DNA of 27,231 bases from the IMG/VR virus record IMGVR_UViG_3300037458_000654, positions 1-27,231 of that record, one strand, 5' to 3'. Positions 3,261-11,960 of this stretch are shown here, one piece after another. Below the pieces are notes generated by a model. That model made no database searches. It worked only from the letters and a program-made list of their open reading frames with translations, and was not told the origin of the DNA. The translations under genes were made by a program, and so were the position numbers. Source of the DNA: a virus. Lineage: Duplodnaviria > Caudoviricetes. Position 1 is the stretch's first letter. Each line of letters begins with the position of its first letter.

Positions 3261-3359
3261 ATGATATGCACATCATGCGGTGAAGAACGAGACGATGTGG
3301 AACGTCGTTATTCATTTTGCGGCATGTCGCTTGGAGCGATGGGTTCGGCGACTGGTTGA
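3261..3359 (+). pseudogene. Probable truncated gene (MICTSCGEERDDVERRYSFCG...) running into an attC half-site
   Basis: CxxC start with only 32 codons; the 3' third is attC-arm sequence. Confidence 0.4.
3326..3349 (-). mobile_element. attC-like half site (one arm only)
   Basis: Minus strand reads GCCGAAC CCATC GCTCCAAG CGAC = R box, 5-nt spacer, L box. Confidence 0.65.
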
Positions 3360-3371
3360 ACGGAGGAAGAA

Positions 3372-3677
3372 ATGGCAAAGGCACTACCGAAAAAATGGTT
3401 TGCAGGATTTAAGGCCAGCATTTCACTGCGAAAAGTCGATAAGTGGGCTGAACACAGGAAGTCGTTCAGGCCGTATTTTGACACATGGGAAGAAGCGCAT
3501 TTGCACATGCTTTGCGCAGCCGAAAAGCGCCTTGATAAGGCCAAGCGCGAGGCAAAATCCGCAGAACGTCACTTGGAAAAAGTGCGCTCATTGAAGACGC
3601 CGAACGCAGAGTTGAGCGGCGGCGAAGCCGTACGATCGGACGACTTGTGGGAATCAATTGATTCTGTTAAACGTTAA
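3372..3677 (+). CDS. Cassette-borne hypothetical protein; C-terminus (PNAELSGGEAVRSDDL) encoded by the attC-like site
   Basis: GGAGG RBS; bracketed by the complementary boxes GTTCGGCG (3343-3350) and CGCCGAAC (3598-3605). Confidence 0.75.
   Translation: MAKALPKKWFAGFKASISLRKVDKWAEHRKSFRPYFDTWEEAHLHMLCAAEKRLDKAKREAKSAERHLEKVRSLKTPNAELSGGEAVRSDDLWESIDSVKR
3599..3651 (-). mobile_element. Degenerate attC-like site
   Basis: GCCGAAC GCAGA GTTGAGCGG CGGCGAAGCCG T aCGaTCGgAC GACTT GTggg; right arm mutated. Confidence 0.7.
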
Positions 3678-5963: not shown

Positions 5964-5967
5964 CTTT

Positions 5968-6030
5968 TAACTATTCACAAAGCGTATTCTTTCGAGAGTA
6001 CGCTTGATGAATGGTTAATCATGCCATTCA
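5968..6030 (+). promoter_or_regulatory. Structured intergenic RNA element, copy 3 (same architecture, different sequence)
   Basis: TAACTATTCA/TGAATGGTTA basal stem, AAGCGTATTCT-TTCG-AGAGTACGCTT upper stem, alternative TGAATGG/CCATTCA stem. Confidence 0.6.
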
Positions 6031-6081
6031 AAACAAAGTAACTAACTCGGAGCAAGTAAATGGCTAGTTTAAACAAAGCGA

Positions 6082-6417
6082 TTGGAACGTAGGGTTATGC
6101 GCATCGTTTCCGAAGCTGAGTTTTCCATGGCGATCCGGCTGCGGTTGATGGGCGTGAAGGCGCGGTCCGTAGTTGGGCCAGGCCGAAGTGGATCGATTGC
6201 CAGTGTGTATGCCTCGCACATTCTCGGAATTCCGTTTATACCATACGGCACCGAATGCCCTGAACATCTGCGCCCGCTGCTGATCGTGGATACGGCACGG
6301 AAGAGCGGCGCGACGTTGCGGAAGGCCGAACGCAGGTATGGCGGTGACTGCGTTGTGGTGCATGTGTTCAACGAGCCGCCAAGGCTGCGATTCTGGTACG
6401 AGCCAGAGGCGCATAAC
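6082..6417 (-). mobile_element. Solitary gene cassette with an attC half-site
   Basis: TGGAAC GTAGG GTTATGCGC at the left end and the exact complement GCGCATAAC (6409-6417) at the right end. Confidence 0.7.
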
Positions 6418-6429
6418 AAAGCAAAGTAA
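6097..6429 (+). CDS. Minimal phosphoribosyltransferase-like protein (cassette cargo)
   Basis: VVGPGRSGSIASVYASHILGIP and LLIVDTARKSGATL resemble the type I PRTase PPi and PRPP loops; the ATG lies inside the GTTATGC box (ORF track starts at TTG 6082). Confidence 0.65.
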   Translation: MRIVSEAEFSMAIRLRLMGVKARSVVGPGRSGSIASVYASHILGIPFIPYGTECPEHLRPLLIVDTARKSGATLRKAERRYGGDCVVVHVFNEPPRLRFWYEPEAHNKAK

Positions 6430-6448
6430 ACCTACTCGGAGCAAGTAA

Positions 6449-6859
6449 ATGGCTAGTTTAAACAAAGCGATGTTGATCGGCAATCTCGGCAAAGACCCGG
6501 AAACCAAAGTGATGGAAAGTGGAAAATCGGTTTGCAACTTTTCGGTTGCGACTTCGGAAACCTGGAAGGATAAGAACAGCGGCGAGAAGAAAGAGAAGTC
6601 TGAGTGGCATAACATCGTTGTCTTCGATAAGTTGGCCGATGTATGCGCCAACTATCTCAAGAAGGGATCGAAAGTCTATATCGAGGGCAAGATTCAGACC
6701 CGCAAATGGACGGATAAGAATGGGGTTGATCGCTACACGACAGAGATCGTGGCATCTGAAATGAAGATGCTATCGTCAAAGAAAGATGGCGAGCAACCGG
6801 CTAAGGCGGCTCCTGCTGCCGCACCTGCTGATGATTTTGACGACGACGTGCCGTTCTGA
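6449..6859 (+). CDS. ssb: Single-stranded DNA-binding protein
   Basis: [15 protein letters not shown]...EWHNIV...[19 protein letters not shown]...DFDDDVPF. Confidence 0.97.
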
Positions 6860-8649: not shown

Positions 8650-8931
8650 ATGGAAACACCCTACACCGCAACCGCGATCCGTATCCTGACGCCCGACGAG
8701 GCGGCGGATCGCTTTACCTTTGCCGAGGTCGCTCGGCTGGCATCTCGTTATCCATCGGTCGCGCCGGAGTTTATCGCTCGGTTGGTGGAGGCGTGCGCGC
8801 TTGCCAACTTCCCGCTCGATCTGGCGGTTCGACGTTATCTCGATAAGGATCGGTCGATATCGGTAACGCCTGAACTCCTGGAAGTCCATCGCGATTTATT
8901 AACGCGCGCTCATCGAGTCCCTCGTGCTTGA
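8650..8931 (+). CDS. Hypothetical protein
   Basis: 93 aa ORF; weak RBS. Confidence 0.65.
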   Translation: METPYTATAIRILTPDEAADRFTFAEVARLASRYPSVAPEFIARLVEACALANFPLDLAVRRYLDKDRSISVTPELLEVHRDLLTRAHRVPRA

Positions 8932-9311
8932 CGACCTCATCGAGTCCCTATGATTACTTTTGGAGTACCAAAATGGTTGACGAAGTTTATTCTGGTGGAT
9001 ATCTAATCGAATCAGATGTGTTTGTTCCTGTTGTAAAACAACTTGCGGGAAATGGATTTGTTTGTAACGAGAACTTAGCAGCTAAGTTATGGACAAGATA
9101 TTCAAAAGATCAGTACGCAACCTGGATTGCTATTGATGAAGAAAGTTTGATTAGATTCGTCGAGTGGATTGAATCTGATCTTGATCGTGATGCTGCATTA
9201 TCTTAGATGACCATACTCATTGAGTCCCTGTCGAGTCCTACAAACCCTATCGAGTCCTTAGAGGAAGGCGACCCTGTCGAGTCCCTAACCGATACCGAGA
9301 TCGACGAGTCC
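8909..9311 (+). repeat. Seven GAGTCC-core direct repeats
   Basis: Cores at 8915, 8942, 9222, 9233, 9252, 9279, 9306; longest unit CTCATCGAGTCCCT. Confidence 0.85.
8973..9206 (+). CDS. Hypothetical protein (AT-rich, between the repeats)
   Basis: GGAG RBS before ATG 8973 (ORF track 8928..9206). Confidence 0.65.
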   Translation: MVDEVYSGGYLIESDVFVPVVKQLAGNGFVCNENLAAKLWTRYSKDQYATWIAIDEESLIRFVEWIESDLDRDAALS

Positions 9312-9728
9312 ACCCTTCCCTATGCGCTGGAAGCCGAGATCGATCCGGTCGATGTAATGGTGCGCTTCATCCATCGACTTATCCAACGACCTTCCAAGAA
9401 GTTTCCCATCACCCCAGATCGAGACCGTCTGATCGTGACAGTCCTGCTCGCCATCATTTCTGACCCAAACCACTATCTAAACAGAATAGTTACCAATCCT
9501 TTGATGAAGGTCTATTTAGAGCGTGGTGGCAGAGTCTATCGGGCTGGTCCGATCGCCAGGAACATGCGGGAAGATGACCAGTTCGATCATACCGTTCAGT
9601 ACCTTTACGACTATGGGATACCGATTCCTGATATTGCCAGAGCCTTGTCGGTAGGAAGGCGAGCCGTCGCCAAGCGTATCAAGTACCGACGTGGAGAAGA
9701 TATTAAAACTTTCGAGAGCGATACTTGA
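9207..9728 (+). CDS. Putative DNA-binding protein with acidic repeat N-terminus and C-terminal HTH
   Basis: YLYDYGIPIPDIARALSVGRRAVAKRI is HTH-like. Confidence 0.6.
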   Translation: MTILIESLSSPTNPIESLEEGDPVESLTDTEIDESTLPYALEAEIDPVDVMVRFIHRLIQRPSKKFPITPDRDRLIVTVLLAIISDPNHYLNRIVTNPLMKVYLERGGRVYRAGPIARNMREDDQFDHTVQYLYDYGIPIPDIARALSVGRRAVAKRIKYRRGEDIKTFESDT

Positions 9729-9753
9729 CTGCTTTCTATTAGCATGGTATTAT
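9725..9753 (+). promoter_or_regulatory. sigma70-type promoter for the H-NS-like gene
   Basis: TTGACT-17 bp-TATTAT with a TG extension. Confidence 0.75.
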
Positions 9754-10330: not shown

Positions 10331-10508
10331 CAACGATTTTCCGAGAGTTATCTCAGGTTGCAAAGCCATTCATGGCTGTAGTGAAAAGAATAAGTGTGAA
10401 CGATACCATCAATATTTAAGATCGAAGCCAGGATTTGGATTTAACGCCAATCATACCTGTATTATTCCACTAAAACATTTTATCAAATGCAACTCATCAT
10501 CGAATTAA
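10320..10508 (+). CDS. Small Cys-rich hypothetical protein
   Basis: 62 aa ORF overlapping both neighbours. Confidence 0.55.
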   Translation: MSDSNDFPRVISGCKAIHGCSEKNKCERYHQYLRSKPGFGFNANHTCIIPLKHFIKCNSSSN

Positions 10509-10831
10509 ACGAATCTGATCTCGTCCCGATTGCCGAGAACGCGATCAAATACTTGTTAAGAAACGATCAGTACGGAGGAACTGGAGAAGCTGCGGAGTAT
10601 ATCAAGAATCAGACGAGATACGCGTTGATGGAGCATCTTAGAAATATTGATCTTTATGGAAAGGTTCAAGGTATAGCAACAACCTGCTTTAACGATATTG
10701 TTGAAGATGTGGTCAGACAAGAAATCATTGGAATTATCAAAAAAACTGTCAAAGAACTGAAAGATAAAGGAATGGTAACAGAGGCGCATAACGACCAAGG
10801 TGAGGCACAGCCTCCAACAAAAAAGCTATGA
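10487..10831 (+). CDS. Hypothetical protein whose C-terminus (HNDQGEAQPPTKKL) is encoded by attC-like site 1
   Basis: 114 aa ORF; stop codon lies inside the attC loop. Confidence 0.65.
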   Translation: MQLIIELNESDLVPIAENAIKYLLRNDQYGGTGEAAEYIKNQTRYALMEHLRNIDLYGKVQGIATTCFNDIVEDVVRQEIIGIIKKTVKELKDKGMVTEAHNDQGEAQPPTKKL

Positions 10832-10883
10832 ATACACCTAAAGACTCAACGGGAGGCTGTTGTCCTCCACCGCCTTGTTCGGC
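10786..10883 (-). mobile_element. attC-like site 1 (98 bp)
   Basis: GCATAAC GACCAA GGTGAGG CACAGCCTCC ..loop.. GGAGGCTGT TGT CCTCCACC GCCTT GTTCGGC. Confidence 0.82.
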
Positions 10884-11070
10884 TTCTTCTATTCGCGAGA
10901 AGTCGGAAACCGAGCGATGGTTCTTCATCGCAGACTGGTGCAAGAAAAAGGGCATCTCTCCAATGAATGCTGACAACTTCAATCGTGCCGCGATGGAGTG
11001 GGCGAAGCTGAATTGCTTTGAGCCGAACGCAAAGCTAAGCGGGACACAACAGCGCGAGGACAAACCATGA
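10828..11070 (+). CDS. Cassette hypothetical protein, starting in the loop of site 1 and ending in the loop of site 2
   Basis: ATGA overlaps at both ends; body bounded by GTTCGGCT/AGCCGAAC. Confidence 0.7.
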   Translation: MNTPKDSTGGCCPPPPCSASSIREKSETERWFFIADWCKKKGISPMNADNFNRAAMEWAKLNCFEPNAKLSGTQQREDKP

Positions 11071-11139
11071 CTGAAGACACAACTACCGACCCCAACAACA
11101 GGCCCGCTGTTGTGGCTCCGCTTGAGCGACAAGTTAGGC
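11022..11139 (-). mobile_element. attC-like site 2 (118 bp)
   Basis: GCCGAAC GCAAA GCTAAGCGG GA CACAACAGCG ..loop.. CGCTGTTGTG GCT CCGCTTGAGC GACAA GTTAGGC. Confidence 0.85.
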
Positions 11140-11402
11140 GCTACCCGCTGGACGTTGAAGGCGGGCAGACGGACGAAGGCGCCTACTGCATGAGTAAGGG
11201 GCACCACGACAAGGCGGCGTTTCTTGAGGAAGCGCGCATTTGGTGGGGCGATGAGATGGAGAACTGGACCGAGCCGGAACACAAGTGGCTGCGCGTGGTG
11301 CCCGACCCCAGCGAAGAGTGGCGGCGCGGATTGCTGATGGACGCCAAACCGCACTCGCGTGGGGCGTTCCCGGCGACGTGGACAGAGCGCCGTAGCGCCT
11401 AA
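11067..11402 (+). CDS. Cassette hypothetical protein with RBS and ATG inside the loop of site 2
   Basis: GAGGA at 11056-11060, ATG 11067; stop is the TAA of GCCTAAC; body bounded by the 12-bp complement GTTAGGCGCTAC/GTAGCGCCTAAC. Confidence 0.78.
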   Translation: MTEDTTTDPNNRPAVVAPLERQVRRYPLDVEGGQTDEGAYCMSKGHHDKAAFLEEARIWWGDEMENWTEPEHKWLRVVPDPSEEWRRGLLMDAKPHSRGAFPATWTERRSA

Positions 11403-11444
11403 CGCTCGGATGAGCGGCTTGTCCGCTCCATCCGATGGTTAGGA
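11397..11444 (-). mobile_element. attC-like site 3 (48 bp, very short)
   Basis: GCCTAAC GCTCG GATGAGCGG CTTGT CCGCTCCATC CGATG GTTAGGA. Confidence 0.8.
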
Positions 11445-11484
11445 TTAATGCGGATGGTAGTCTGCTTCATAGAAAAATATTCTA

Positions 11485-11724
11485 ATGAAAGCACGTTGTG
11501 GTTGCAACATGCTCACTATTGTACATAACTTAATGACTATTCCAAGTATAAAGTTTGTCTGCCCGAAATGCGGCAAAACCGAGTTGAGTATTTCAACTAG
11601 ACCGCTATACTGTCATTGCGAGGGTAGAGGAGCAACACGCACTAATTGGGATTTGTCAGGACCAGTAAAAAAAGTGCGGAAGCGCAAGTTTACCACTAAA
11701 ACTAGGATGATAAAGGATAAATAG
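11485..11724 (+). CDS. Basic Cys-rich (Zn-finger-like) protein
   Basis: CGC...CPKCG...CHC; 79 aa. Confidence 0.55.
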   Translation: MKARCGCNMLTIVHNLMTIPSIKFVCPKCGKTELSISTRPLYCHCEGRGATRTNWDLSGPVKKVRKRKFTTKTRMIKDK

Positions 11725-11738
11725 AGGGTGTTATTTTT

Positions 11739-11960
11739 ATGAGCAAGCGTTGGTCTGAGAGTAAAAAAGATTTAGTTATAAATAAAGAAATCGATCTCTT
11801 CTTAAAGGAGATTGTTACTATTTTTCAAAAGTATAACTTATCAATCGGTCATGAAGATCGAAATGGTGACTTTTTGATAGAAAAATATTCTATCGAAAAC
11901 TCGTTATGGTTACAAGATGCTCATGATAATACTGATAAACAATCTCGTGATGAGACATAA
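11739..11960 (+). CDS. Hypothetical protein, last gene of the + arm
   Basis: 73 aa; GAGG upstream. Confidence 0.65.
   Translation: MSKRWSESKKDLVINKEIDLFLKEIVTIFQKYNLSIGHEDRNGDFLIEKYSIENSLWLQDAHDNTDKQSRDET

Follow-up and report, generated by a model that had tools for sequence, protein, structure and literature searches.

A textbook integron cassette consists of a promoterless gene followed by a mostly non-coding attC site, and it is read from the promoter of the integron.

Phage CALINs, with sites active with IntI1, were published by Qi et al. 2023 (PMC9892861). Like the array analyzed here, they comprise attC arrays and small genes in integrase-less phages, and phage TJE1 has two annotated genes, orf1 and orf2, that likewise enter an attC arm before reaching their stop. 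However, the three TJE1 sites are short, forward and located 3' of genes, whereas those analyzed here are long, reversed and located 5' of genes, and hold the start. The available portions of the main text and supplement of that paper contain no mention of a reversed, start-bearing layout. The attI1 frames ORF-11, ORF-17 and ORF-18, and short attC ORFs, aid translation downstream (Hanau-Bercot 2002 and Jacquier 2009, via PMC8876359). In the ORF-11 type, as here, translation signals overlap an integron site, and a frame extends past the crossover point to a stop provided by the neighbor. By contrast, frames of that type encode separate short peptides in forward arrays, whereas in the present array an in-frame fusion joins the start to the gene of the cassette, with which it travels, the borrowed part being the C-terminal tail. 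Cases of ORFs internal to attC are termed anecdotal in PMC11511950. Synthetic coding attC sites (Nivina et al. 2020, PMC7439510) resemble the present ones in that the attC structure tolerates coding sequence, but those were engineered whereas the sites described here are natural and contain both a stop and a start. The orientation of intI is treated in PMC4889954, and Treponema integrons were rejected as a precedent for reversed genes, the inverted element there being intI instead (PMC3607928). A literature search that took in few subscription journals and no bioRxiv supplements returned no paper on reversed cassettes starting in an attC loop.

The DNA analyzed here is a stretch of 27,231 nucleotides from a tailed phage (hereafter the window). 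It probably carries an array of back-to-front integron-type cassettes, in which attC is on the opposite strand, 5' of the gene, likely provides the start codon from its loop and would be cut by IntI at AA|C. The moving unit would be a site plus the gene downstream of it. From the sequence we infer that an integron integrase, probably that of the host, would act on the sites by cutting at AA|C in the left arm, that the loop ATG would be used, the loop supplying the start codon of the gene and, at site 2, a ribosome-binding site as well, and that the cassettes would be expressed from phage promoters. Reversed phage cassettes with a start-bearing attC would be new relative to the published forward phage CALINs.

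An array of attC-type hairpins opposite to the genes

With a completeness of 36%, the window, a phage contig, contains on its plus strand an early region with genes for Sak, a UvrD-like helicase, SSB, exonuclease VIII and H-NS, and on its minus strand tail genes. The minus strand, which is antisense to the genes of the array, has three attC-type hairpins, at positions 10786–10883 (site 1, 98 nt), 11022–11139 (site 2, 118 nt) and 11397–11444 (site 3, 48 nt). The detector used was a custom-built, orientation-specific scorer of the attC layout, distinct from IntegronFinder. It gave 86 matches at a score of at least 20 in 265,572 bases (the window plus 56 loci) and none at that score in one shuffle of the same bases. 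Sites 1, 2 and 3 scored 23.0, 23.8 and 19.2, respectively, as attC on the minus strand only, where all three show the RYYYAAC ... GTTRRRY boxes, spacers of 5–6 nt and paired L boxes. Compared with shuffles, the hairpins folded as RNA with z values of −3.5, −2.7 and −5.7 and, as plus-strand DNA, folded into imperfect hairpins with z values of −2.7, −3.3 and −6.1 (about −6 for site 3). Boxes, an extrahelical base and a single-strand hairpin, all hallmarks of attC, are thus present in every site, and the attC-like nature that the preliminary description had ascribed to them is borne out by box layout, extra base, folds and the comparison of detector matches with the shuffle. The hairpins are beyond chance, and the array is a genuine feature, a variant of integron cassettes. 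A scan of the window for symmetric hairpins did not pick up sites 1–3, an Rfam search gave no match, and blastn of the array, site 1 and site 2 found no match in cultured phages. Another hairpin (5965–6020), a 56-nt intergenic palindrome ending in TTAAC/GTTAA, scored on both strands and was left uncounted. In a search by left arm, 7 of 23 matches were not sites (L035, L036, L047, L051 and L054–L056), and one further locus, L046, retains the left arm alone.

The orientation of the sites was deduced from two features. On the plus strand, the extra base of sites 1–3 lies in the arm opposite AAC, and an extrahelical base opposite the AAC arm marks the recombinogenic strand (PMC5027507). In addition, when site 1 is read on the minus strand its first 20 nt are identical to a 60-nt attC (locus L107) that is located 3' of a forward gene and adjoins a bacterial IntI. 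The arms of site 1 nearly match this and two other attC sites (L093, L079) of chromosomal integrons in the class of G029, an uncultured Akkermansia sp., but those sites have about 60 nt and forward genes, whereas site 1 has a 36-nt loop with a stop and a start. Since the sites are on the minus strand, crossover is predicted at AA|C in the left arm, at 10791|10792, 11027|11028 and 11402|11403 for sites 1, 2 and 3, so that each site would go with the gene downstream of it. The reversed layout is shown by these sequence comparisons. Assigning gene orientation from ORF coverage gave 38 reversed, 28 unclear and 14 same-sense calls; in GC-rich DNA this measure proved too noisy and was dropped.

Cassette B (10792–11027; cores GTTCGGC and GCCGAAC) would thus comprise site 1 and a body, and gene B (10828–11070, plus strand, 80 aa) consists of a leader of about 17 aa from site 1, a conserved core and a 14-aa tail from site 2. 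Cassette C (11028–11402; cores GTTAGGC and GCCTAAC) would comprise site 2 and a body, and gene C (11067–11402, plus strand, 111 aa, phrog_10472) has a leader of about 23 aa from site 2 and stops at the TAA of the core, in site 3, the short site that has no start in its loop. Pfam and Atlas gave no function for genes B and C. As integron gene cassettes do, B and C have complementary cores of their own, matching in 4/4 positions, and B, like the cassette shared by L038 and L048, occurs in differing contexts. With three sites in 660 nt and no intI nearby, the array conforms to the definition of a CALIN (at least two close attC sites), an assignment made independently of IntegronFinder. Unlike in a classical forward cassette, the genes run antisense to attC and have their starts inside the site. 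The window lacks the intI and attI beside the array that would make a complete integron.

Two more cassettes lie upstream. Lone cassette X (6094–6417; GTTATGC ... GCATAAC) has a truncated site and an ATG inside the core itself; gene X is found in a cassette form (L067) and in a plain form (L068). It is flanked by the two copies (6040–6082 and 6429–6471) of a 43-nt duplication covering the ribosome site and initial codons of ssb; the upstream copy encodes a 10-aa peptide with its stop 4 nt before the ATG of X. A further reversed cassette (3343–3605; GTTCGGC ... GCCGAAC) is located between decayed sites; its GGAGG and ATG (3372) are 3' of GTT, hence it has no loop start. A sigma-70-like promoter match, by consensus only, upstream of the H-NS gene (9725–9753, plus strand) could direct transcription of the array in the sense of the genes. 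Other repeats were observed in the window: a ATCGAGTCCCT-like motif (8912–9300) is repeated where ORFs 8928 and 9207 start, and positions 11466–11524 and 11874–11932 form a 59-nt repeat of 80% identity, the short fragment 3' of site 3 (11466–11524) resembling the C-terminus of ORF 11739–11960.

Borrowed tails and possible translational coupling

In ORF A (10487–10831, plus strand), a resident gene of the phage, site 1 sequence has replaced the native end. As stated in the preliminary description, this ORF extends across the left arm of site 1, and its TGA (10829–10831) overlaps the ATG of gene B (10828) as ATGA. It reads AAC (10790–10792) as Asn, and both its stop and the 14 residues at its end, N-DQGEAQPPTKKL, are supplied by the site. 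All five ORF A homologs (5/5) have 99–101 aa and end at KGEL.. with no tail, and in L066 there is no site at the counterpart of ORF A; ORF 10487 was thereby ruled out as a cassette. A 14-nt stretch at its end (10779–10792, plus strand) is identical to the 3' end of cassette X (6404–6417), and the exact 14-mer occurs only at 6404 and 10779. The stretch is likely a remnant of a cassette end attached to ORF A, the identity suggesting a homology-mediated join. In contigs of runs X1 and X2, 234 different letters stand directly 5' of the ORF A start (10484–10487), which is a variable slot among sister strains.

The same arrangement recurs at the next junction, again in agreement with what had been described. 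Gene B leaves site 1 through its right arm and, further on, traverses the left arm of site 2, where it encodes PNAKLSG. Its TGA (11068–11070) overlaps the ATG of gene C (11067) as ATGA in the loop of site 2, where GAGGA (11056–11060) lies 6 nt 5' of the ATG. The broader statement that the sites carry the translation signals of their cassettes held for the starts in loops 1 and 2 and for GAGGA in site 2, but not for site 1, whose loop has no Shine-Dalgarno sequence, nor for site 3. Of the recurrent peptides attributed to the arms, PNAKLSG lies in the frame of gene B, but in site 3 an in-frame stop precedes LHPMVR, and LERRVM requires a TTG start upstream of ATG 6097, so that these two are probably untranslated.

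The upstream frame at AAC was assessed for 48 independent sites, one per family. It reads Asn in 23 and xAA in 13 (11 of which stop at TAA), is the third frame in two and is unclear in ten. A gene ending in frame on AAC (Asn) would borrow its last 2–20 residues and its stop from the following site, and one ending on the core TAA would terminate by itself. Homologs of gene B diverge right after 'PN', and the tail from site 1 follows unrelated genes. More generally, one body ends in differing tails and one tail follows unrelated bodies, which indicates that tails are exchanged at AAC. These comparisons support the swapping of C-terminal tails proposed earlier, which holds only because the cassettes are reversed, an orientation that the preliminary description had missed.

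In its strong form, the earlier proposal made the loop an obligate translational coupler, a cassette being expressed only when the upstream gene ends on ATGA. The lack of a Shine-Dalgarno sequence in site 1 is in line with this, as is the placement of the ATG within a hairpin of the mRNA (−32 to −37 kcal/mol) that ribosomes would unfold, although the ATG of site 1 itself is predicted to be unpaired. Of the 13 distinct site 1 contexts with an intact AAC, 11 have the Asn frame as their longest open frame upstream. In 14 of 26 families the first stop in this frame falls within −8 to +6 nt of the ATG, versus 6 and 2 for the other frames; yet the phase bias is marginal (13/26, p = 0.058) and ATGA occurs in just 5 of 11 independent read-through junctions. 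Furthermore, in L024 and L025 the gene preceding a loop of the site 2 type has already ended some 40 nt upstream, at the TAA of the core. For a coupler of the ORF-11 type, in which expression downstream would require the upstream gene to terminate close to the start, these figures are mixed, and obligate coupling is rather doubtful. No clear link was found between the presence of a Shine-Dalgarno sequence and the type of upstream end, ATGA overlaps are frequent between ordinary genes of the window, and a single RNA run yielded short contig pieces only, uninformative on expression. Coupling through ATGA is plausible at site 1, which has no Shine-Dalgarno sequence, but not as a general rule.

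Mobility and polarity of the cassettes

Site 1 recurs in other phage contigs beside unrelated neighbors, and identity within its family starts at AAC and fades at or just past GTT. Comparison of 71 sites in 55 families showed agreement of a cassette's own cores in 4/4 variable positions for 29 of the 39 adjacent pairs; for the composite site the figure was 8 of 39 (p = 5e-6). Among 2485 pairs of sites, four share site family and downstream body with differing upstream DNA (including window/L026 and L038/L048), two share upstream DNA with different sites and no pair has both the upstream DNA and the site in common. These counts are low (6 pairs), one pair being within a single locus and one at the score threshold. 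The co-variation of cores and this linkage bear indirectly on a putative recombination by IntI at G|TT. In L026, site 1 and body B stand behind another upstream gene, in L025 a near-identical site 2 precedes a different body, and L038 and L048 have one cassette in common and different neighbors. Swaps of tails and of neighbors are thus shown by sequence comparison. Homologs of gene B share the core and differ in leader and tail. The viral contigs searched gave no gene B loci; of four metagenome loci, L029 was spurious and L027 and L028 had no intact sites. In wetland runs, site 3 occurs in contigs with several other flanks, and the summed contig depth of its positions 11400–11442 is far above that of the neighbors.

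A search of the window, 36% of the complete genome, for a tyrosine recombinase (PF00589) gave no match. IntI was found over the cut-off in one of 28 virus records (G007) and in none of the five near-complete ones. G007 has the terminase, portal and capsid genes of a phage, and its IntI lies about 230 nt from a loop of the site 1 type. In this record, which has head and tail genes, the IntI (G007:C1:26132–27380; loci L058, L018) is in an early operon, adjoining Sak4 and SSB genes, and a promoter-like TTGACT-17-CACTAT points away from intI. Of 40 stretches beside bacterial IntI, 20 contained sites, 47 in all. A reverse loop ATG was present in 43 of 58 long sites from phage and metagenome loci, a count that includes sites picked via ATG-containing patterns, and in 7 of 22 long sites beside bacterial IntI (p = 7e-4). 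By their sequences, some of these seven were judged to precede small phage-like genes, which makes it appear that reversed cassettes are taken up by host integrons. One bacterial array beside intI (L065 10163–11312, G029:C40) appears to contain forward cassettes and two reversed ones with a loop ATG.

It could be argued that the sites, though derived from attC, now serve mainly as short homology linkers, with the phage annealing proteins Sak or Sak4 shuffling genes via the common arms and loop and no integrase taking part. The window has genes for Sak, SSB and exonuclease VIII and no integrase, AAC has been lost in some copies (L034, L037), and short identities are found at the end of ORF A (14 nt) and around cassette X (43 nt). 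Moreover, a chimeric site (L018 / L058 2694–2791) combines the left arm of one family with the right arm of site 1; its arms pair poorly and are joined in the common loop around the ATG. Together with the 43-nt duplication, this chimera points to homologous recombination as a second route. As the main process it is nonetheless improbable: family identity starts at AAC, cores co-vary within cassettes, the extra base is retained, and phage-like reversed cassettes adjoin IntI in bacterial integrons (L065, L098, L108).

It is still harder to sustain that the cassettes are forward, in the classical manner, with crossover at G|TT of the right arm and exchange of N-terminal leaders, not tails. One leader, that of gene B, is indeed found on ten unrelated bodies (P0026–P0035), body B occurs with several different leaders, and for some attC sites top-strand recombination at a low rate is described (PMC5027507). 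However, the position of the extra base, the homology of the minus strand to forward bacterial attC and the linkage of each site to its downstream body all contradict this layout and make it very unlikely.

Probable loop start codons and a possible origin of cassettes

In gene C, the conserved YPL starts three codons 3' of GTT and the first internal Met is residue 42; in gene B, the core starts at GTT itself and the first internal Met is residue 46. No usable start thus lies between the GTT box and the conserved core in bodies B and C. Among 48 independent sites (one per family, with the searched families excluded), the loop ATG was in the frame of the body in 17 of 27 clear cases, versus 10 of 54 in the other frames (p = 1e-4). 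For 38 long sites, an ATG open into the next body was present in 24 on the reverse strand versus 10 on the attC strand. TATGAA was invariant in ten loop variants collected by the left arm alone, in which most flanking loop columns vary, and in L037 the loop is 1 nt shorter and the body is correspondingly in another frame. That the loop ATGs are incidental, ORF callers having extended frames whose true starts follow GTT, is barely credible in view of these data, even though the leaders are low-complexity and unconserved and two cassettes of the window, 3343–3605 (ATG 3372) and X (ATG 6097), do start at or after GTT. With the plain relatives considered below, the absence of body starts after GTT, the invariant ATG and the frame enrichment make it very likely that the loop ATGs, those of sites 1 and 2 included, are true starts, as originally proposed.

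Plain relatives of gene C begin a few residues 5' of YPL, just before the conserved segment, so that in gene C the site has taken the place of the native start. Distant relatives of gene C are present in 27 phage records, and inspection of one, in Vibrio phage H20, found no site at a score of at least 17. A tree of the gene C core (20 rows, 92 columns; L005, L012, L013, L014, L016, P0008, P0010 and P0012 omitted as duplicates, fragments or fusions) requires four to five changes to account for the attC-led forms, and an origin in one clade was rejected (AU, p = 0.003). Plain and attC-led forms are intermixed on this tree, hinting at repeated cassette birth, with the reservations that P-row labels come from the peptide alone, that support is weak and that losses could account for part of the pattern.

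These relationships suggest that ordinary phage genes can be converted into mobile cassettes. It is possible, with the balance somewhat against it, that phages act as a cassette factory, an attC module with its own start codon being grafted repeatedly onto ordinary phage genes. The module would take the place of the native start and an AAC core would be placed at the far end; the reversed cassettes would then join any phage operon via the IntI of the host, exchange tails and sometimes enter host integrons. If so, plain and cassette forms would be before-and-after pairs for how cassettes arise, and the mixture of both in the gene C family offers a way to test the conversion of genes into cassettes. 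With a pool of cassettes of opposite polarity, in which the site is the junction between genes, integrase-less phages would shuffle accessory genes while keeping the operon intact, and many annotated N- and C-termini of phage proteins would be attC arms, not protein features.
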